Positions 19,092-26,173 of a stretch of DNA of 64,000 bases are shown piece after piece. Position 1 is the first letter of the stretch, and the number at the start of each line of letters is the position of its first letter. Source of the stretch: a virus; UHGV virus genome UHGV-0275551. One strand, given 5' to 3'. The notes under the pieces were generated by a model, which had not been told where the DNA came from, ran no database searches, and saw only the letters and a list, made by a program, of their open reading frames with translations. Made by a program: the position numbers and the translations under genes.

Positions 19092-19167
19092 TGGAGAATC
19101 CGAAGGGACTCGAACCCTTATAAACCTGTTTTGCAGACAGGCACATAGCCGTTTCTGTCACGGATTC
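19092..19167 (-). tRNA. tRNA-Cys (anticodon GCA)
   Basis: hand-folded cloverleaf; 7-bp acceptor gaatccg/cggattc, T-arm aaggg-actcgaa-ccctt on plus strand; sense anticodon loop CTGCAAA; CCA encoded. Confidence 0.6.
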
Positions 19168-19171
19168 AAAT

Positions 19172-19264
19172 TGGAGGAAGATACCAGACTTGAACTGGTA
19201 CACCGATTTCTCAGCTACTGGCAGTTTAGCAAACTGCTCCCTTACCTTTTAGGGTTAATCTTCC
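19172..19264 (-). tRNA. tRNA-Ser (anticodon GCT), class II
   Basis: 93 nt with long variable arm; acceptor ggaagat/atcttcc; sense anticodon arm GCAGT-TTGCTAA-ACTGC. Confidence 0.55.
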
Positions 19265-19266
19265 AT

Positions 19267-20001
19267 TTATTTCTGTAATGCGTTCTTCATTTCTGGTGTT
19301 GCAATAGTGTCAATTACACCAGTTTTACAAGCATCATCAAACCAGTCTGGTAAGATACCTGCTAAGAACCCATTGATATTCGTTTTAAGGTACTCTGCAA
19401 TAAGAGCAGCTTCTTCTTCAATCATCTGCACAACTTCATCTGCATAAGCTGTAATTTTTGAAATACCTTCATTAATCTTACTAACAGCTTGCTCAGCTAA
19501 ATCAGAAATAGTATCAAGACCTTTGTCAATAGCATCTTGTAAGTCACTTAACACACCATTAACACTATCTAGTGCACTGTTAATCGTATCAATAGCTTTT
19601 TGACCATACTCTGTAGCAACACCCATAATACCACTAAATGGTGTACAGCCAACTTGTTCACCTGCTGCACCCATAACATTAGAGTAACCTTTTGCTACCT
19701 GCATACGTGATGAAAACTCATCAATGGACTTTTGACCGTAATCTGTTAGTGTTTTGGTAGTTGATGTAGTGCTTGTCAGACTCGTGGTAAAGCTGTTAAG
19801 CAGAACTGTTGTAAGTCCAGCAGCAACAAGCTTATCCTTTACTGTAGGGTCTGATACAGAGCTAATAGAGCTTACAAGTGATGTAGAGGCAGCTACGGTT
19901 CCACCGAGAACTGCTGCACCAGTAATAAGGGGGTTAGAAAACCCTTTACCGGTTTTTAAGAGATTGAAAATCTCCTTACCTTGTTCTGTCATCTCTTTCA
20001 T
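19267..20001 (-). CDS. hypothetical Ser/Thr-rich protein embedded in tRNA array
   Basis: track ORF 19267..20064 shortened to the ATG at 20001 because the longer form overlaps tRNA-Phe; weak AAAGGTG RBS. Confidence 0.4.
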   Translation of the reverse strand: MKEMTEQGKEIFNLLKTGKGFSNPLITGAAVLGGTVAASTSLVSSISSVSDPTVKDKLVAAGLTTVLLNSFTTSLTSTTSTTKTLTDYGQKSIDEFSSRMQVAKGYSNVMGAAGEQVGCTPFSGIMGVATEYGQKAIDTINSALDSVNGVLSDLQDAIDKGLDTISDLAEQAVSKINEGISKITAYADEVVQMIEEEAALIAEYLKTNINGFLAGILPDWFDDACKTGVIDTIATPEMKNALQK

Positions 20002-20019
20002 TAAGCACCTTTGAAATTG

Positions 20020-20094
20020 GTAGTCCAGTGGGATTTGAACCCTCTTCTCATGTTTTTCAGACACGCGCTTTAACCATATAAGCTACTTGGACTA
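20020..20094 (-). tRNA. tRNA-Phe (anticodon GAA)
   Basis: acceptor tagtcca/tggacta perfect; sense anticodon arm CGTGT-CTGAAAA-ACATG; T-stem has one mismatch; CCA apparently incomplete. Confidence 0.5.
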
Positions 20095-20099
20095 TAAAT

Positions 20100-20175
20100 T
20101 GGGGTGACCTACGGGATTTGAACCCGTATAGACCATGTTCACAGCATGGGTCATTACCATTTATGATAAGGCCAC
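20100..20175 (-). tRNA. tRNA-His (anticodon GTG)
   Basis: sense anticodon arm CCATG-CTGTGAA-CATGG; discriminator C73; perfect T-arm. Confidence 0.6.
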
Positions 20176-20206
20176 ATTTAAGGACTCTCGTAAGAATCCT
20201 TAGAAG

Positions 20207-20282
20207 TGGCAGCGGCATAAGGATTTGAACCTTAATAGGACAGCTTCAGAGACTGCTGCATTGCCAGTTATGCTATACCGCT
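20207..20282 (-). tRNA. tRNA-Gln (anticodon CTG)
   Basis: sense anticodon loop CTCTGAA, stem with two G:U pairs; G73 discriminator; D-stem GCAT/ATGC. Confidence 0.5.
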
Positions 20283-20287
20283 AAATT

Positions 20288-20366
20288 TGGTACTCCATAT
20301 CGGATTCGAACCGATACATAACACAGATTTTAAGTCTGGCCTCTCTGCCAATTGGAGTAATGGAGC
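20288..20366 (-). tRNA. tRNA with Leu anticodon TAA, short variable loop
   Basis: 79 nt; sense anticodon arm CCAGA-CTTAAAA-TCTGT; Leu-type D-loop CAATTGGCAGAG; variable region about 7 nt; A73. Confidence 0.45.
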
Positions 20367-20368
20367 AT

Positions 20369-20444
20369 TGGCGGGGGATGTTGGAATTGAACCAACTTCT
20401 TCGATTTCAAAGACCGAGGTTTTAACCTTGTAAACTAATCCCCT
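20369..20444 (-). tRNA. tRNA-Gln (anticodon TTG)
   Basis: sense anticodon arm TCGGT-CTTTGAA-ATCGA; T-arm gttgg-aattgaa-ccaac; G73. Confidence 0.55.
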
Positions 20445-20452
20445 TTAAATCT

Positions 20453-21010
20453 TTACTTTCTTAGTGGATGAATAAAGAATGCCAACATAACTCTTTCCCT
20501 TGAAAATGCTCTTTCTTCTGGGACAACACTTTTAAGTTTCCACCCAACATAAATTCTCCAGTAAAATTGTTTACCAAAGATTTTGATTGACGGCACAAAA
20601 GCGAATAATCCCCAAGCATTACTGTTCCACATTAGGAGATAACCAGTCTGATTATCTTCAGGGTTAGAACTTACGTTGATATTACCTTTCCACTTAGTAA
20701 CATCTTTTACATCTCTTCCTAATACATGGTAAGAGAAGTTATAAGCTTTGTTTCTCCAGAGCCATCCAACTCTCTGCATGTAGACACCAAGCTTACCAAT
20801 CTTTCTAATCTTAGCCCATCGTTTGATATGACCTGCATCACCATCAATTGGGTTGTCATAAGTCTCCATCCATCTGAACCCGAAAGGTAAGTGTCCTTTC
20901 TTCTCACTGTAGAATGGAACTACAAAAGGTGCTAAGATAACTGCTAAGATTGCTGCAAATGGCTCTAACAAAGCTAAGAAAATCCATGAAGCATACTTTA
21001 AGTATCTCAT
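20453..21010 (-). CDS. hypothetical membrane protein embedded in tRNA array
   Basis: 185-aa track ORF; hydrophobic N terminus (IFLALLEPFAAILAVILAPFVVPF). Confidence 0.4.
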   Translation of the reverse strand: MRYLKYASWIFLALLEPFAAILAVILAPFVVPFYSEKKGHLPFGFRWMETYDNPIDGDAGHIKRWAKIRKIGKLGVYMQRVGWLWRNKAYNFSYHVLGRDVKDVTKWKGNINVSSNPEDNQTGYLLMWNSNAWGLFAFVPSIKIFGKQFYWRIYVGWKLKSVVPEERAFSRERVMLAFFIHPLRK

Positions 21011-21249
21011 TGTCTAATCCTCGTAAGGAGGTAAATGTTATTATTCGTTTCTAAACCTTCTGGTAAAACTGTCTCAAAAATAACACTCTTCAGATGTCTA
21101 CCACCAAAACAATCACGTATAAATCTTTCTACTCTAGCGGGGTCACATAAGTATCCCACTTTTAAGAAAATGTGGTGTTCAACACCAATGACCCTGACAA
21201 ACTCAATACTCTCACAGTTTTCATGTTCAACTACTGTTAATGTTTGCAT
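21007..21249 (-). CDS. hypothetical protein
   Basis: 80-aa track ORF, stop overlaps start of 20453..21010 ORF. Confidence 0.35.
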   Translation of the reverse strand: MQTLTVVEHENCESIEFVRVIGVEHHIFLKVGYLCDPARVERFIRDCFGGRHLKSVIFETVLPEGLETNNNIYLLTRIRQ

Positions 21250-21266
21250 AGTATCACCTTTTTATC

Positions 21267-21342
21267 TGGCGCAGGATAAGGGATTCGAACCCCTATTAAC
21301 AGCTTCGTAGACTGTTGCTCTTTCCATTTGAACTAATCCTGC
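21267..21342 (-). tRNA. tRNA-Arg (anticodon ACG)
   Basis: acceptor gcaggat/atcctgc perfect; sense anticodon arm ACAGT-CTACGAA-GCTGT. Confidence 0.55.
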
Positions 21343-21347
21343 AAAAT

Positions 21348-21425
21348 TGGTGTTCCAAGACGGATTCGAACCGTCACTAATACAAGGTTTGAGCTTGCAT
21401 CCTCTGCCAATTGGGATACTGGAAC
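21348..21425 (-). tRNA. tRNA with Leu anticodon CAA, short variable loop
   Basis: 78 nt; sense anticodon arm GCAAG-CTCAAAC-CTTGT; Leu-type D-loop CAATTGGCAGAG; perfect T-arm gacgg-attcgaa-ccgtc. Confidence 0.45.
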
Positions 21426-21426
21426 A

Positions 21427-21501
21427 TGGTACTCACTAAAGGACTTGAACCTTTTTCTTCATCTTGTAAGGGTGATGTTTTACCATATAAACTAAGCGAG
21501 T
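21427..21501 (-). tRNA. tRNA-Val (anticodon TAC)
   Basis: sense anticodon loop CTTACAA; T-arm aaagg-acttgaa-ccttt; D-stem gttt/aaac. Confidence 0.5.
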
Positions 21502-21502
21502 A

Positions 21503-21597
21503 TGGAAGAGGTCTGAAGTTGTGCCGCTAACTCAACTTCGTGGAATTTGTTACGGTCTTCAGTTGACTCAAAGCGGTCTTTCACTTGACCTCTGAAT
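21503..21597 (-). other. 95-nt structured spacer, possibly a degenerate tRNA or small RNA
   Basis: tgg + 7-bp terminal inverted repeat agaggtc/gacctct like an acceptor stem, internal 7-bp hairpin gaagttg/caacttc, but no canonical T-loop. Confidence 0.25.
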
Positions 21598-21673
21598 TGG
21601 TGCTCCCACAAGGACTCGAACCCTGATAAGTTGCTTACAAGGCAACCGTAATAACCAATTATACGATAGGAGC
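21598..21673 (-). tRNA. tRNA-Thr (anticodon TGT)
   Basis: sense anticodon arm GTTGC-CTTGTAA-GCAAC perfect; acceptor with one G:U. Confidence 0.6.
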
Positions 21674-21680
21674 ATTAATT

Positions 21681-21755
21681 TGGAGCATCCAGAGGGAATC
21701 GAACCCTCAACCTCAGTTTGGAAGACTGTAATTTTCCCGTTTAAACTATGGATGC
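21681..21755 (-). tRNA. tRNA-Gly (anticodon TCC)
   Basis: sense anticodon loop CTTCCAA; perfect T-arm gaggg-aatcgaa-ccctc; acceptor gcatcca/tggatgc. Confidence 0.5.
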
Positions 21756-21761
21756 ACTAAT

Positions 21762-21837
21762 TGGTGGAGTCACTGAGAATTGAACTCAGTTCCCAAGTTT
21801 GCAAAACTCGAATTTTAACCATATAAACTATGACCCC
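21762..21837 (-). tRNA. tRNA-Ala (anticodon TGC)
   Basis: sense anticodon arm CGAGT-TTTGCAA-ACTTG; G3:U70 pair and A73 as expected for Ala. Confidence 0.6.
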
Positions 21838-21843
21838 ATTGTT

Positions 21844-21919
21844 TGGTACAGGTGGAGGGAATTGAACCCATCGTCTTACTGATTAAGAGTCAGCCGCATA
21901 ACCATTTTGCTACACCTGC
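21844..21919 (-). tRNA. tRNA-Lys (anticodon CTT), weak T-stem
   Basis: best parse gives sense anticodon arm GCTGA-CTCTTAA-TCAGT; T-stem only 3 clean pairs; an alternative parse gave a poorer loop. Confidence 0.4.
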
Positions 21920-21926
21920 ATTAATT

Positions 21927-22003
21927 TGGTACACCTAGAGAGATTCGAACTCACACTGAGCAGATTCTAAGTCTGCTGCCTCTACCAGTTGGGCTATAGG
22001 TGC
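21927..22003 (-). tRNA. tRNA with Leu anticodon TAG, short variable loop
   Basis: 77 nt; sense anticodon arm GCAGA-CTTAGAA-TCTGC perfect; Leu-type D-arm GCC-CAACTGGTAGA-GGC; 5-nt variable loop. Confidence 0.5.
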
Positions 22004-22083
22004 ATTAAATCTTTTTAGAGAACTTCTAAGAACCTAAGCAACAAGGTTCCACAACAAGCTGTAATAACCTTAGAAGCCCTCTA

Positions 22084-22104
22084 AAAAGACCTAAATAGGT
22101 CTTT
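22084..22104 (-). terminator. hairpin terminator-like element downstream of the 22247..22588 ORF
   Basis: aaagacc-taaat-aggtcttt hairpin; short T-run on the minus strand. Confidence 0.35.
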
Positions 22105-22246
22105 GCATAGTCTTGTTTAATCCGGTGACTAGAACCTTTGGAGAGCTTGATATTATCTCTTCTCCGTGACACCTACTAGGTGCTTTGACAGTGTACGACA
22201 ATACACGAGGGATAAACCGACAATGCGAACAAGCATGGACGGAGTA

Positions 22247-22588
22247 TTAAATCTTTAAGCTAAGTTCAGTCTTAGACTTGATATCTTTAGCTTTGTAGAT
22301 GATGACTTTATCAAGTGGTTCAATGTAAACAGCTAAGTAATCAACTTGAGAGTTATCAAAATTCATTATTCTATTTTCATTCTTGTTAGAACGAACTCTT
22401 TTCAGTTGCACTCTCCAAAGTTCACCTCTTTTGACTGAGGTTGATTTTACCTCAACAGTCTCAATCAAACCATCTTTGTGAACTAGAAAGTCATACTTTG
22501 CATTATCTGTAGCTGGTGAATACACTTCATAACCTCTTTTGAGGAAAGCTAATTGTGTAGCAATTTCACCTACTGAACCTTTCTTCAT
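22247..22588 (-). CDS. PD-(D/E)XK-type nuclease-like protein, putative
   Basis: track ORF 22247..22768 shortened to ATG 22588 (strong AGGTGG RBS; longer form overlaps tRNA-Ser); motif YDFLVHKDG...IETVEVKS fits a D...E.K nuclease core. Confidence 0.4.
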   Translation of the reverse strand: MKKGSVGEIATQLAFLKRGYEVYSPATDNAKYDFLVHKDGLIETVEVKSTSVKRGELWRVQLKRVRSNKNENRIMNFDNSQVDYLAVYIEPLDKVIIYKAKDIKSKTELSLKI

Positions 22589-22611
22589 AATCACCACCTT
22601 AAAAATCATTT

Positions 22612-22698
22612 TGGCAGAGAGTGCAGGAGTCGAACCCGTACCGTTTCCAGCAGCACCAGTTTTCAAGGCTGGTTGGTCTCCGTTGACCGCCACTCTCT
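22612..22698 (-). tRNA. tRNA-Ser (anticodon TGA), class II
   Basis: 87 nt; acceptor agagagt/actctct perfect; sense anticodon loop CTTGAAA; long variable arm. Confidence 0.55.
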
Positions 22699-22711
22699 CC
22701 GAAACAATCTT

Positions 22712-22794
22712 TGGCATGGGACGGAGGAGTTGAACCCCTTTGAAACGGTTTTGGAGGCCGTTGCTCATGCCTTAGAGTCTTAACATCGTCCCAT
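22712..22794 (-). tRNA. tRNA with anticodon CCA (Trp?), atypical 83 nt
   Basis: perfect acceptor atgggac/gtcccat, G73, sense anticodon arm ACGGC-CTCCAAA-ACCGT, but the D-region is about 7 nt too long. Confidence 0.35.
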
Positions 22795-22936
22795 ATTATA
22801 ATTCGAAGCTTACCCTGTTATCTCAACACTGTCAAGCTTCTTCTCAGATTATTTACATGTTCTGGAAAACATGAGATACAGACCACCTCCCTACAGGAAG
22901 ACCCACTAAGGCCGTCTAAGTAATCTGCTAACTATT

Positions 22937-23013
22937 TGGTACACCCTACAGGATTCGAACCTGTAACTAACGATTTAGAAGACCGTTGCTCTATCCAATT
23001 GAACTAAGGGTGC
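22937..23013 (-). tRNA. tRNA-Arg (anticodon TCT)
   Basis: sense anticodon arm ACGGT-CTTCTAA-ATCGT; perfect T-arm acagg-attcgaa-cctgt. Confidence 0.6.
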
Positions 23014-23259
23014 ATTATCTTTAAAGACTCTCTTAGAAAGCCCTTAAAGATGCCCACCTTATTAATCATACCGTGGGCGAGTACGCCAAATTCTTTGATG
23101 AGGGATTGGAAGACCTCACTGGTGTTTAGCCTATCAAGCTACTGCCAGAAAAACATTGTCGTTTGCATTTATTTTAAATTTGCAAAATAGACGCTACGCA
23201 ACGAAAACTAAGGTTACTATAAAGTAGTCACATCTCAATGTCAACAACTTTATTGAAAT

Positions 23260-23335
23260 TGGTACTGGTAGGTGGAATCGAACCACCGATGTTCCCTTAT
23301 CAGGGGAGTGTTATAACCTTCTTAACTATACCAGC
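23260..23335 (-). tRNA. tRNA-Ile (anticodon GAT)
   Basis: sense anticodon loop CTGATAA; perfect T-arm ggtgg-aatcgaa-ccacc. Confidence 0.6.
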
Positions 23336-23336
23336 T

Positions 23337-23413
23337 TGGAGGTTCAGATGGGAATCGAACCCACATTCATAGGGCTTATGAGACCCTTGCATTACCTTAT
23401 CTGCGACTGAACC
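23337..23413 (-). tRNA. tRNA with anticodon CAT (Met or Ile2 type)
   Basis: sense anticodon arm AGGGT-CTCATAA-GCCCT; acceptor ggttcag/ctgaacc perfect. Confidence 0.55.
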
Positions 23414-23417
23414 ATAT

Positions 23418-23493
23418 TGGTAGAAGTGGAGGGATTCGAACCCATCGCCTGTCAGATTAAAAGTCTGCCGCATCACCATTCTGCTACACTTCC
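23418..23493 (-). tRNA. tRNA-Lys (anticodon TTT)
   Basis: sense anticodon loop CTTTTAA; T-arm gaggg-attcgaa-cccat. Confidence 0.55.
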
Positions 23494-23496
23494 ATT

Positions 23497-23640
23497 AAAT
23501 TATCTTTGTAGATAAGCTACCCAGACTTGCTTAAGGTCTGTAGCGATGTGCCTTTTTGGGTTTAAATCTAGAATTTACCCTTTCACCCTTTGTGGTCGCA
23601 TACTCACAGGTAAGCTTAATAACTTATCTACAAAGATAAT
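23497..23640. repeat. 19-bp inverted repeat bracketing about 105 bp inside a tRNA spacer
   Basis: aattatctttgtagataag (left arm) and its exact reverse complement cttatctacaaagataatt (right arm). Confidence 0.55.
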
Positions 23641-23785
23641 TACCAGACCGTTGTTTATCATCTTAAGTGCTACCATTACACCAACTCGACATCTGCCGAG
23701 TGAAGGAATCGAACCTTCGCCTTTTCTTTACCGAGAAATAGATTGTTTAAGTTTTGCTGTAAACGGTCTTCTGTAAATTTGTTGA
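23641..23785 (-). repeat. spacer unit (family shared with 24180-24262 and 24340-24430) containing a tRNA-like T-arm fragment
   Basis: begins taccagaccg, ends ttgctgtaaacggtcttctgtaaatttg; internal gaagg-aatcgaa-ccttc hairpin followed by ttttcttt. Confidence 0.4.
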
Positions 23786-23922
23786 GCCAGACCAAGTTTT
23801 AAATTTTTCAAAATTAAATTGGCTTGAAATTTCATACATTCTTGCTGTATTTGGTCTTCTGCTCCTTTAAAGAATACTCGTAAGAACTCTTTAAGGGAGG
23901 GGCTAAATAGCCCTCTCAAAAT

Positions 23923-24000
23923 TGGCGGTTATGAAGGGATTTGAACCCTCATCATCTCCCGTGACAGGGGAGTATTTTAACCAGATTAAACTACATAACC
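23923..24000 (-). tRNA. tRNA-Asp (anticodon GTC)
   Basis: sense anticodon arm CTCCC-CTGTCAC-GGGAG perfect; acceptor ggttatg/cataacc perfect. Confidence 0.6.
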
Positions 24001-24006
24001 TTTATT

Positions 24007-24094
24007 TGGTGTGCCGTGTAGGAGTCGAACCTACCGAGTCTCAATGACAAGGGATTTACAGTCCCCACCGCTACCATCTACGGGATAACGACAC
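24007..24094 (-). tRNA. tRNA-Tyr (anticodon GTA), class II
   Basis: 88 nt; sense anticodon loop CTGTAAA; perfect T-arm gtagg-agtcgaa-cctac; long variable arm. Confidence 0.55.
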
Positions 24095-24102
24095 ATTTAA
24101 TT

Positions 24103-24179
24103 TGGCGGTTAGTCAGGGATTCGAACCCTGTGCCATTCGCTTAACAGGCGACCGCACATACCTTATGTGCTTCCTAACC
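24103..24179 (-). tRNA. tRNA-Asn (anticodon GTT)
   Basis: sense anticodon loop CTGTTAA; D-stem GCAC/GTGC; perfect T-arm caggg-attcgaa-ccctg. Confidence 0.55.
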
Positions 24180-24262
24180 ATGTTTAGTATTACCAGACCG
24201 TATCTTTCAATTTTTCCGCTAAAAATTTAATAAATATTGCTGTAAACGGTCTTCTGTAAATT
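24180..24262 (-). repeat. spacer unit between tRNA-Asn and the second CAT tRNA
   Basis: shares taccagaccg start and ttgctgtaaacggtcttctgtaaatttgg end with the 23641-23785 unit. Confidence 0.45.
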
Positions 24263-24339
24263 TGGAGGCGGGTGCAGGAGTCGAACCTGCCGATACCATG
24301 CTAATGAGACATGTGAGACGCCCTTTCTCTATACCCGCA
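24263..24339 (-). tRNA. tRNA with anticodon CAT, pair 1:72 mismatched (initiator-like?)
   Basis: perfect T-arm gcagg-agtcgaa-cctgc; sense anticodon loop CTCATTA (position 37 is T); acceptor pair 1:72 is T:C. Confidence 0.45.
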
Positions 24340-24430
24340 ATTCTTAATGACCAGACCAAATCTCTTCTTTGTCCGATTTACCTTCAGATGAATAAGATTA
24401 AGTTTGCTGTAATTGGTCTTCTGTCAAAAC
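24340..24430 (-). repeat. spacer unit between the CAT tRNA and tRNA-Glu
   Basis: accagaccaaa start and tttgctgtaattggtcttctgtcaaaactgg end, degenerate copy of the spacer family. Confidence 0.4.
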
Positions 24431-24508
24431 TGGCGTTCCAGAAGGGATTTGAACCCTCAGATATCCACTTTGAAAGAGTGGTGACTTTACCGTTTTGTCT
24501 ACTGGAAC
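24431..24508 (-). tRNA. tRNA-Glu (anticodon TTC)
   Basis: sense anticodon arm CCACT-CTTTCAA-AGTGG perfect; acceptor gttccag/ctggaac perfect. Confidence 0.6.
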
Positions 24509-24515
24509 ATTAATT

Positions 24516-24592
24516 TGGTCTCTGTTGGAGGACTTGAACCTCCGGCCTTACCGCCCCAAACGGAACGCTCTACCAAGCTGAGCTAAACAGAG
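24516..24592 (-). tRNA. tRNA-Pro (anticodon TGG)
   Basis: sense anticodon loop TTTGGGG; perfect T-arm ggagg-acttgaa-cctcc; D-arm GCTC-AGCTTGGTA-GAGC. Confidence 0.55.
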
Positions 24593-24757: not shown

Positions 24758-26173
24758 TTACCAGATATAACGGTCAATCATTACTGCTTTGAGCATTACA
24801 CTGATTGGGTCAAACTTCTCACCACCAAGCAGAGCTTTTAAAGTGGCTGGAGAGAACCCTGATACCATTGCTACACCGTTATCCTTAACAGATACTTCGC
24901 AAGTACCATTACGGTTTGCTAAGTACCAGAATACCAGTTGTGGCATCTCATATCCAGCTTTTTTGTACTTACTCTGAATTGCTTCAAAGTTTGTACGACC
25001 GTTAGCCCCATCAACCTGATTAAACTCCATATCGGAGAAGATGATAAGCTTACTTGGCATATCTTTCTGAGTCAAGTTGTTTCTTTTGCCTGTCTCAAGA
25101 ATACGGTCAAAAGCTGCTTGTAAGTTAGTTGAGCCATATTCAACGTGTCGCATCACCTGACGATGACGGTTTCGTAAATCACCACTCAGTTCGATGAAGT
25201 GAGGGTTTGTTGAATAAACCATCAACTCATTCTTAAAGCAACCTGTATTGCGTTCTGCTACATACAAGGCAAGTGATACACCAATATCCAGAGCAGTAAT
25301 GGAGCCAAAATTCACCCAAGACATTGAACTTGATACATCAGACATACACAAGATGTTTTCACCTTCTGCCATCCAGTTTGGTAGTGCTTTCCACTGCTCA
25401 TTAGCAACATCTGCATTACCATGCTTGACAGATTTAATCACATCGTATGGGTAAACAGCACCAGCATTAATCTTAGCCTCACCTTTTGATAAGGACTCAA
25501 TGTAAGCTTTGTAACGTTCTCCATCCTTACGGTTAAACAGTTTTTGGTAACGTGCAGCAGCAAGTGAGGGAACCTTACTGTAGTCAATCTTGCCAAACTC
25601 ATTAGCAGAGATTTTTTGCTCAACTGTATCAGATAGTGCAGATAACAGTGTGCGGTACTCTTTCTCGCTCAAGTTGGCAAACTTGCAGAAACGTTTTACA
25701 AACTGCTTATGACGTGGTTTGACTCGTGGTAACCACTTAGCCGCCAAACCTGCTGTTGCAGGGTCTAGTAATGCTGCTTCTAAATGTTTGAAGGCATCTG
25801 TCTCGAAACAAGTACCCACGAAGATTTTGAAGTCATCAAAACGACCAAGTTCTGCAATCTTATCCATAATGCGAAGAACCTGTGTAGGCTCTAAAACTTT
25901 ATCTTCAATTGCTTGAAGCAAAACAGTTCTGAAGGCTTTACGCTCACCCATACCTTCTCGTACATCTCGCATATGAAGCAAAATACGAACTGCAACATCA
26001 ACATCCTCACGCAAAGCTTTGTAGAACAAGTCTGGTAAGATTTCTACATTGCTACGGCTTGAACCAGCAGCTTTGTAAAAGTCTACAAGAGCAGACATTG
26101 ATGAAGTATGGTTTACAGCACCATTTTCAGTTCGACCTGCATGAAGGTGCGCATGTTTAAATAATTCGCTCAT
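24758..26173 (-). CDS. vWA-domain protein with about 280-aa helical N-terminal domain
   Basis: 471 aa; MIDAS-like DxSxS (ILCMSDVSSSMSW) and KLIIFSDMEF strand typical of von Willebrand A domains. Confidence 0.55.
   Translation of the reverse strand: MSELFKHAHLHAGRTENGAVNHTSSMSALVDFYKAAGSSRSNVEILPDLFYKALREDVDVAVRILLHMRDVREGMGERKAFRTVLLQAIEDKVLEPTQVLRIMDKIAELGRFDDFKIFVGTCFETDAFKHLEAALLDPATAGLAAKWLPRVKPRHKQFVKRFCKFANLSEKEYRTLLSALSDTVEQKISANEFGKIDYSKVPSLAAARYQKLFNRKDGERYKAYIESLSKGEAKINAGAVYPYDVIKSVKHGNADVANEQWKALPNWMAEGENILCMSDVSSSMSWVNFGSITALDIGVSLALYVAERNTGCFKNELMVYSTNPHFIELSGDLRNRHRQVMRHVEYGSTNLQAAFDRILETGKRNNLTQKDMPSKLIIFSDMEFNQVDGANGRTNFEAIQSKYKKAGYEMPQLVFWYLANRNGTCEVSVKDNGVAMVSGFSPATLKALLGGEKFDPISVMLKAVMIDRYIW

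Follow-up and report, generated by a model that had tools for sequence, protein, structure and literature searches.

Type I tRNA-Leu genes with short variable loops in the tRNA array of a Felix O1-like phage

The stretch of viral DNA analyzed here, 64,000 nucleotides (nt) of UHGV virus genome UHGV-0275551 (the window), contains three transfer RNA (tRNA) genes with leucine anticodons in which the variable loop is only 5-7 nt long. Textbooks treat a long variable arm as the hallmark of bacterial tRNA-Leu, and the initial annotation, which recognized the three genes from the sequence alone, had left two options: either these are unusual minimal tRNA-Leu species, or the proposed fold was wrong. 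ARAGORN and the Rfam tRNA model (RF00005, gathering score 29) reproduce the three genes with their coordinates and anticodons, and the lengths of 77-79 nt are those called by ARAGORN, which shows neither a long variable arm nor a different anticodon in any of them:

20288..20366, minus strand: tRNA-Leu(UAA), type I, 79 nt with the encoded CCA (ARAGORN; Rfam 47.5 bits)
21348..21425, minus strand: tRNA-Leu(CAA), type I, 78 nt with the encoded CCA (ARAGORN; Rfam 44.0 bits)
21927..22003, minus strand: tRNA-Leu(UAG), type I, 77 nt with the encoded CCA (ARAGORN; Rfam 57.3 bits)

In Rfam all three exceed the gathering score, with E-values between 5e-8 and 1e-10, as cloverleaves with a 7-bp acceptor stem, a D arm, an anticodon arm whose loop is 7 nt, and a T arm of the form GTTCRANNC; without the CCA the mature bodies are 76 (UAA), 75 (CAA) and 74 nt (UAG). 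According to a positional parse the three genes are built alike: the acceptor stem is 7 bp, the D stem 3 bp, and the anticodon and T stems 5 bp each; the D loop has 11 nt (CAATTGGCAGA or CAACTGGTAGA as DNA; CAAUUGGCAGA or CAACUGGUAGA as RNA) and the anticodon loop 7; and U8, A9 and A73 are present, in agreement with the Leu-type D arm and discriminator base described initially. The T loop is TTCGAAT (UUCGAAU) in all three, and the T stem of the UAG gene contains one U.U mismatch. The variable loops are GTTATGT (GUUAUGU, 7 nt) in the UAA gene, ATTAGT (AUUAGU, 6 nt) in the CAA gene and TCAGT (UCAGU, 5 nt) in the UAG gene; each ends in U48, which faces A15, and the whole core set of U8-A14, A15-U48 and G18G19 with A20a on the 11-nt D loop and 3-bp D stem is present in every gene. 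The acceptor end pair is G1.U72 in the UAA and UAG genes and G1-C72 in the CAA gene, and the anticodon loops are CUUAAAA (UAA), CUCAAAC (CAA) and CUUAGAA (UAG). The anticodons are thus all of the leucine kind (NAA or NAG), which defines decoding, not charging.

In a class II tRNA the variable arm exceeds 10 nt and folds into a helix; the 5-7 nt found here fall short of this, whereas the corresponding host genes have 13-15 nt. What characterizes a type I tRNA-Leu is a leucine anticodon together with an unpaired variable loop that is short but has 5 nt or more, nucleotide 48 counted, and all three genes show this combination. With 5-7 nt between the anticodon and T stems there is therefore no room for an arm. 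Single-sequence energy folding yields a cloverleaf-like minimum-energy structure for the CAA and UAG genes but not for the UAA gene, and the z-scores of the three genes are weak (−1.6, −1.8 and −0.2). Because folding of single sequences is this uninformative, the structural case rests on comparative data and not on thermodynamics. We used an alignment of 148 type I sequences, consisting of the 3 window genes, 105 viral and 40 cellular homologues. With the cloverleaf plus the 15:48 pair imposed on this alignment, 98.1% of the cells are paired and double changes occur in 20 of the 21 pairs; the covariation score is 0.895, while controls slid by 1-3 columns reach at most 0.158 and none of 500 shuffles attains the observed value. 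The 15:48 pair itself is A-U in 146 sequences and G-C in 2. These statistics are strong evidence that the short-loop cloverleaf is a selected structure, and of the two options left by the initial annotation the minimal tRNA-Leu species is the right one: a wrong fold or a hidden long arm is ruled out by the 5-7-nt spacing and by the covariation, which gives the same cloverleaf as the software fold.

The window is part of a Felixounavirus genome, that is, of a Felix O1-like phage of E. coli and Salmonella, with a GC content of about 39%. Its tRNA region is 95-98% identical to those of wV8, Escherichia typing phage 1, Tribble and Barry, and is matched by 402 phage records. The records of wV8 and Felix O1 already annotate the three genes as tRNA-Leu; the genes are not new, then, but their architecture has apparently gone unremarked in the searchable literature. 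Leu(UAA) is identical or at least 99% identical in 216 of 264 phage records, whereas most phage records are only 80-95% identical over the surrounding 5.7-kb region. Across hundreds of enterobacterial phage genomes the Leu genes are thus conserved far more strongly than the sequence around them. The three had been called paralogous, and they do belong to one family, but they are not recent duplicates: identity among them is 61-70% against a family background of 61 ± 8%, and a recent triplication within the phage is ruled out, the three being no more alike than random family members.

A hybrid gene was found in Salmonella phage FG1m (PP068123.1, L360:3999-4076), where the tRNA called as Leu(caa) is a chimera whose 5' part up to the T loop matches the window Leu(CAA) and whose T-stem and acceptor 3' strands match Leu(UAA); the hybrid acceptor stem pairs at 6 of 7 positions. 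To judge from the sequence, the chimera looks like the product of a recombination between two Leu genes that deleted the intervening segment.

The three Leu genes are embedded in a large array, in which the Ser and Tyr genes retain long variable arms, with ARAGORN lengths inside the 87-93 nt range originally reported:

19092..24592, minus strand: array of 26 tRNA genes, the three Leu genes among them (ARAGORN, Rfam; same layout in the wV8 annotation)
19172..19264, minus strand: tRNA-Ser(GCU), 93 nt, class II comparator with long arm (ARAGORN; Rfam 46.2 bits)
22612..22698, minus strand: tRNA-Ser(UGA), 87 nt, class II comparator (ARAGORN)
24007..24094, minus strand: tRNA-Tyr(GUA), 88 nt, class II comparator (ARAGORN)

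Rfam confirms 23 of the 26 ARAGORN genes at the gathering score, and all 26 encode their 3' CCA. Small open reading frames (ORFs) sit between clusters of genes. The spacers are frequently 2-8 nt long, and polycistronic precursors are therefore implied.

The leucine tRNAs of the host provide the natural reference. In E. coli K-12 leuZ (UAA), leuX (CAA) and leuW (UAG) are 87, 85 and 85 nt long, with variable regions of 13-15 nt. They are like the phage genes in their anticodons, 3-bp D stem, 11-nt D loop, U8, U48, A73 and encoded CCA, and host and phage genes have one D-loop design in common, N13-A14-A15-Y-Y-G18-G19-Y-A-G-A (N13-AAYYGGYAGA), with A20a present; leuZ even has the G1.U72 pair of the phage UAA gene. 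The differences are few. Position 9 is A in the phage genes and G in the three host genes, position 13 is C in the phage and G or A in the host, the T loop is UUCAAGU or UUCGAGU in the E. coli Leu genes instead of UUCGAAU, position 37 is G in leuW and A in the phage UAG gene, and, above all, the 13-15-nt arm of the host genes has no counterpart in the phage. The phage Leu(UAG) has no blastn similarity to any of 5,426 complete E. coli genomes, and on this ground an origin from the host or from an E. coli prophage is ruled out.

The identity set of the E. coli leucyl-tRNA synthetase (LeuRS) comprises A73, A14, A15-U48, G18G19 with A20a, and the contacts between D and T loops; neither the anticodon nor the long arm is needed by this enzyme, and minimal tRNA-Leu without the arm stay active (PMC9976931, PMC6614811). 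Every listed sequence element of leucine identity is present in the three phage genes, from which the long arm alone is missing. Features that other synthetases look for are absent: there is no G3.U70 pair, no long arm for SerRS and no fitting anticodon. By this parse and established identity rules, no synthetase other than LeuRS fits the three tRNAs.

Type I tRNA-Leu has a precedent. The work of Fan, Huang, Ji & Wang (2019, NAR) showed that S. coelicolor has one type I tRNA-Leu(CAA) next to four type II genes, that its single LeuRS charges both types, and that the shortest workable variable loop is 5 nt; the Streptomyces enzyme is described there as the only prokaryotic LeuRS known to charge both types, whose coexistence is rare (PMC6614811). 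Phages are not mentioned in that paper, which is the only one on bacterial type I tRNA-Leu that our literature search found; on short or type I tRNA-Leu of phages nothing came up beyond it. The phage genes resemble the S. coelicolor tRNA in having a leucine anticodon, A73, U8-A14 and class II Ser and Tyr tRNAs alongside, and its 5-nt variable loop is matched by the UAG gene. They differ in being phage-borne, in forming a set of three isoacceptors, in having a host LeuRS that is reported to be type II-only, and, in two of the three, in their 6- or 7-nt loops; the S. coelicolor tRNA has C48, while the phage genes have U48 opposite A15.

Phage T5 is comparable in another respect: it too carries an array-borne Leu(UAG) for codons rare in the host, in an array interspersed with small ORFs and homing endonucleases, but the T5 tRNA is type II, 85 nt long, with a 13-nt arm. 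Together with T5's, the tRNA-Leu of T4 is the classical coliphage leucine tRNA. Long Leu of the T5 type occurs in 97 phage records and Leu(UAA) of the Felix O1 type in 264, and the T5 case rules out that all phages use a short Leu. A likeness of shape, with no claim of a sequence relationship, is offered by the type I tRNA-Leu(UUR) of animal mitochondria: its variable loop is short, its identity elements include A73 and A14, and its anticodon stem is rather weak (PMC9976931); it differs in its separate origin, its dedicated mitochondrial LeuRS and its degenerate D/T-loop architecture.

The family turned out to be widespread among viruses. With the 77-nt Leu(UAG) as query, blastn finds genes annotated as tRNA-Leu in Mycobacterium, Streptomyces, Gordonia, Pseudomonas, Cronobacter, Enterococcus and crAss-like phages, aligned nearly without gaps. 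Examples of the Leu genes of such phages are given below; lengths are as annotated, mostly without CCA, with the exception of Prophecy and AhP_Mru1, for which ARAGORN calls including the three CCA positions are shown:

Mycobacterium phage Koguma: Leu of 76, 75 and 74 nt
Streptomyces phage StarPlatinum: Leu of 76 nt, plus one of 82
Cronobacter phage CR3: Leu of 74 and 75 nt
Pseudomonas phage vB_PseuGesM_254: Leu of 74 and 75 nt
Enterococcus phage Bop: Leu of 76 nt, plus one of 86
crAss-like phage cr111_1: Leu of 78 and 75 nt
Gordonia phage Forza: Leu of 75, 76 and 75 nt
Erwinia phage Prophecy: Leu of 77, 78 and 77 nt
Aeromonas phage AhP_Mru1: Leu of 77 nt

Each phage locus fetched from the blastn matches has the short Leu beside long Ser and Tyr genes, and type I Leu is carried by unrelated phages of Actinobacteria, Proteobacteria, Firmicutes and Bacteroidota. 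For a broader view we scanned the public viral contigs of IMG/VR with a pattern in which the D-arm motif is followed by an anticodon of the form NAN and, at a short distance, by the T loop. At least 120 loci were found; the counts that follow, like those for bacterial genomes further on, refer to the matches and loci listed. No fewer than 133 of 134 matches lie in ARAGORN tRNAs, all 133 with leucine anticodons; tRNAs for Phe, Ile, Met and Val, which the pattern allowed, are not among the 134, and all six Leu anticodons are represented. Five or more tRNAs are present in 76 of 120 viral loci. Among 177 distinct short viral Leu sequences, 176 have A73 and 172 have U48, and variable loops of 5 nt (159 sequences) far outnumber those of 6 nt (12) and 7 nt (5). 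Loops of 6-7 nt are thus rare (17 of 177 viral members), and the UAA and CAA genes of the window stand at the long end of the type I range. The idea that the longer loops are an adaptation to enterobacterial LeuRS was dropped, as 5-nt loops prevail in the type I Leu of other gamma-proteobacterial phages. In a second scan, whose pattern takes no account of arm length, type I makes up some 15% of viral tRNA-Leu with this D loop among the matches listed, a rough figure conditioned on one D-loop sequence and on a database that includes host tRNAs at prophage borders.

There is also a second kind of short Leu, which combines a 5-nt variable loop with a type II-like D arm bearing G9 and G13 (UGAUGGAAUUGGCAUACAU). 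It is found, for example, in AhP_Mru1 (L362:3988-4064) and in three IMG/VR loci (L018, L022 and L091), and G9 occurs in 21 of the 177 short viral sequences. The pattern of bases at these positions suggests that the long arm was lost more than once.

Applied to one genome per prokaryotic species, the same short-Leu pattern gives at least 120 loci, of which about 100 of the 120 listed belong to Actinomycetota (Nocardia, Mycobacterium, Corynebacterium, Bifidobacterium, Rhodococcus, Amycolatopsis and Arthrobacter among them). In 98 of the 120 the type I Leu is the sole tRNA within 8 kb, which therefore marks it as an ordinary chromosomal gene, and all 119 distinct cellular sequences have A73 and U48. 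The rule of the initial annotation that bacterial tRNA-Leu is class II holds as the normal case, with known exceptions in Streptomyces coelicolor (PMC6614811), in many Actinobacteria and in the many phages described here. The window genes align with the actinobacterial type I genes at best identities of 71-78%, the family mean being 61%. Leu(UAG) comes closest to the genes of Actinobacteria and actinophages: it is 77-78% identical to actinobacterial chromosomal genes and has in common with them the D arm UAGCCCAAYUGGCAGAGGC, the YCAGU loop and the T arm. The chromosomal singletons of Actinobacteria rule out that the short Leu is a phage-specific invention. The broad spread of the family through phages, mobile tRNA arrays and Actinobacteria is apparently undescribed in the searchable literature.

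Outside the Actinobacteria, the genome loci listed are mostly dense tRNA arrays, and four of them hold 19-26 tRNA genes within 8 kb. Cylindrospermum sp. NIES-4074 (L223) has 26 tRNAs in 8 kb, two Microcoleus loci (L212 and L232) have 19-22, and a metagenome-assembled genome of Rhodocyclaceae (L228) also has a dense array; each of the four carries several type I Leu beside long Ser and Tyr genes. These look like mobile tRNA array units or prophage arrays.

The reading that we favor, with a probability of roughly three in four, is that the three genes encode functional type I leucine tRNAs of a Felix O1-like phage, which would be charged by the host LeuRS and decode leucine codons. The Leu tRNAs would be cut from polycistronic array transcripts with their CCA already encoded; host LeuRS would charge them through A73 and the tRNA core; and in decoding, the UAA species would read UUA and UUG, the CAA species UUG, and the UAG species CUA and CUG, perhaps also CUU. 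In 63 long ORFs of the window leucine is encoded by UUA (27%), CUU (27%), CUG (14%), UUG (13%), CUA (11%) and CUC (6%), while in E. coli CUG accounts for about half of the leucine codons, UUA for about 13% and CUA for about 4%. The phage thus uses UUA and CUA about twice as often as the host, and late in infection an AT-rich phage would need extra capacity for UUA, CUA and CUU, which it uses far more than its host; the three tRNAs would supplement the supply for codons rare in the host. Direct coverage by the three anticodons extends to UUA, UUG and CUA; for CUU to be included, the UAG species would need a modified U34 that allows this reading. The lack of a long arm is probably a matter of tolerance and not of need. 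Leu alone among the three types of bacterial class II tRNA can shed the arm and keep its identity, which would explain why Ser and Tyr keep theirs in every array examined. A phage-encoded LeuRS was also considered, but no window ORF of at least 400 aa matches a synthetase family.

Several observations weigh against this reading. The one published test of E. coli LeuRS on a bacterial type I tRNA-Leu, the Leu(CAA) of S. coelicolor, was negative: the enzyme 'could not leucylate' this tRNA in vitro. It is described as type II-only, chimeric E. coli LeuRS enzymes gained no type I activity, and earlier work cited in the same paper indicates that the leucine-specific domain of E. coli LeuRS favors a large variable region (PMC6614811). 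The anticodon stem of the UAA gene contains the mismatch C27.U43, and when this gene is folded alone by minimum energy the result is not a cloverleaf. In the UAG gene G36 is followed by A37 (loop CUUAGAA), where leuW has G37, the m1G37 site; going by the gene sequence, the phage Leu(UAG) could not carry the m1G37 usual for tRNA-Leu that read CUN, and would probably lack the frameshift suppression associated with it. Position 37 varies in the viral family as well, since among short viral Leu with G36, 47 have A37 and 37 have G37. The window covers 64 kb of a genome of about 88 kb, so that a phage factor may be encoded elsewhere, and our literature search found no reports of expression or aminoacylation for these three genes.

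The alternative that fares best concerns why the arm is short, and is compatible with charging by host LeuRS. It holds that the type I shape is itself an adaptation, by which the phage tRNAs escape defense or toxin enzymes directed at class II tRNAs, or a phage-induced attack on host tRNA-Leu, so that leucine decoding would be kept while the host tRNA-Leu is inactivated. Infection by T-even phages cleaves a host tRNA-Leu. The 3' ends of tRNAs are the site of action of DUF1814-family nucleotidyltransferases, which serve in abortive infection or as toxins, and AbiEii and MenT3 can be taken as examples of a preference for long-armed tRNAs, MenT3 preferring tRNA-Ser and some long-armed tRNA-Leu (PMC7450476). 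The concentration of type I Leu in mobile contexts, namely the 76 viral loci with at least five tRNAs and the non-actinobacterial arrays, fits such an explanation, as does the seemingly repeated loss of the arm (the G9/G13 lineage, e.g. AhP_Mru1). However, no E. coli or Salmonella defense that singles out tRNA-Leu or the arm is known to us, and no search aimed at one was made. The Ser and Tyr tRNAs of these arrays, with their long arms, would remain exposed; a long-armed Leu suffices for T5 and its relatives in the same hosts; and the ordinary chromosomal type I Leu of Actinobacteria show that no phage-specific reason is needed. On balance an adaptive shape seems to us rather unlikely.

In a bolder form, type I tRNA-Leu would be a portable leucine adaptor that crosses phyla, charged from Actinobacteria to Enterobacteria because LeuRS reads only the tRNA core and A73, and able to evade defenses or nucleases that recognize the long arm. 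If true, this would explain the spread through phage and mobile arrays and the repeated origin, and would contradict the type II-only view of E. coli LeuRS; we consider it a speculative proposal with the odds clearly against it.

A second alternative, which we hold to be quite improbable, is that the LeuRS of E. coli or Salmonella does not charge the three tRNAs, which would then be array relics or have a non-decoding role as decoy, regulator or primer. It draws on the failure of both native and chimeric E. coli LeuRS with the S. coelicolor tRNA (PMC6614811), to which the clear homology of the window Leu(UAG) with actinobacterial type I genes adds weight, and on the weak anticodon stem of the UAA gene. 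The tested Streptomyces tRNA, however, with its C48, is without the A15-U48 pair that the phage genes have, and this difference may explain the negative result. The genes are conserved far above their surroundings in hundreds of enterobacterial phage genomes, and the family shows what marks decoding tRNAs, namely compensatory changes in the stems and an anticodon loop, A73 and A15-U48 that are retained. Type I Leu is moreover carried by distinct lineages of enterobacterial, Erwinia, Cronobacter, Pseudomonas and Aeromonas phages, and the isoacceptor set of the window matches the codon bias of the phage.

Finally, that the short length reflects a wrong fold or wrong boundaries, pseudogenes, or other isotypes with a chance Leu anticodon can practically be dismissed: the non-cloverleaf fold of the lone UAA gene speaks for it, but two independent programs, ARAGORN and Rfam, give the same boundaries and anticodons, the 5-7-nt spacing and the covariation over 148 sequences support the cloverleaf, and the D-arm motif is tied exclusively to leucine anticodons among the IMG/VR matches listed.

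Some further features of the array and its neighborhood were recorded. Directly upstream of the array, a 471-aa ORF (24758-26173, minus strand) matches PHROG 850, 'RNA-binding protein' (E 8e-184), and the Pfam domains DUF2828 and DUF7788; a sequence search of the PDB with this protein gave no match. A 'Ro-like RNA-binding protein' adjoins the type I Leu-bearing arrays of Streptomyces phage StarPlatinum and Gordonia phage Forza, and Salmonella phage FG1m has the same 'RNA-binding protein' next to its tRNA array. The protein may be a conserved companion of tRNA arrays; a part in RNA quality control or in a system of the Y-RNA type would be examples. Inside the array, a 173-aa ORF (22247-22768, minus strand) that overlaps tRNA-Ser(UGA) has a PD-(D/E)XK endonuclease domain (PF11645, E 1e-16) and, by analogy with the HNH genes in the arrays of T5 and Erwinia phages, may be a homing-type nuclease. 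At 23014-23318 (minus strand) there is a 246-nt gap between tRNA-Arg(UCU) and tRNA-Ile(GAU), whose minus strand is without an ORF of at least 60 aa; sub-threshold matches to transfer-messenger RNA (tmRNA) and permuted tmRNA found here (15.7 and 29.2 bits against a gathering score of 47) may be due to chance or to a degenerate tRNA-like RNA. Last, tRNA-Ser(GCU) (19172-19264) and two tRNAs with CAU anticodons (23337-23413 and 24263-24339, minus strand) have ARAGORN 3' ends of the form ...CUCCA, that is, a U discriminator. E. coli tRNA-Ser has G73, and the E. coli Met, fMet and Ile2 tRNAs have A73. The pair of CAU genes may include an initiator or a lysidine-type tRNA-Ile.

Overall, the best-supported reading makes these tRNAs ordinary in function and unusual in form; it involves no new mechanism, and it conflicts with a published claim, as we find three well-conserved type I Leu genes in a coliphage whose host LeuRS is reported to be type II-only. 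As a practical matter, annotation pipelines should not class short tRNA-Leu as errors, and the compact type I Leu tRNAs are candidates for engineered leucine or suppressor tRNAs. If E. coli LeuRS does not charge the phage tRNAs, hundreds of enterobacterial phages would conserve three uncharged tRNAs for some other purpose. If it does, the long arm would be dispensable for natural substrates in vivo, and the published negative result would probably reflect C48 or some other feature of the Streptomyces tRNA.

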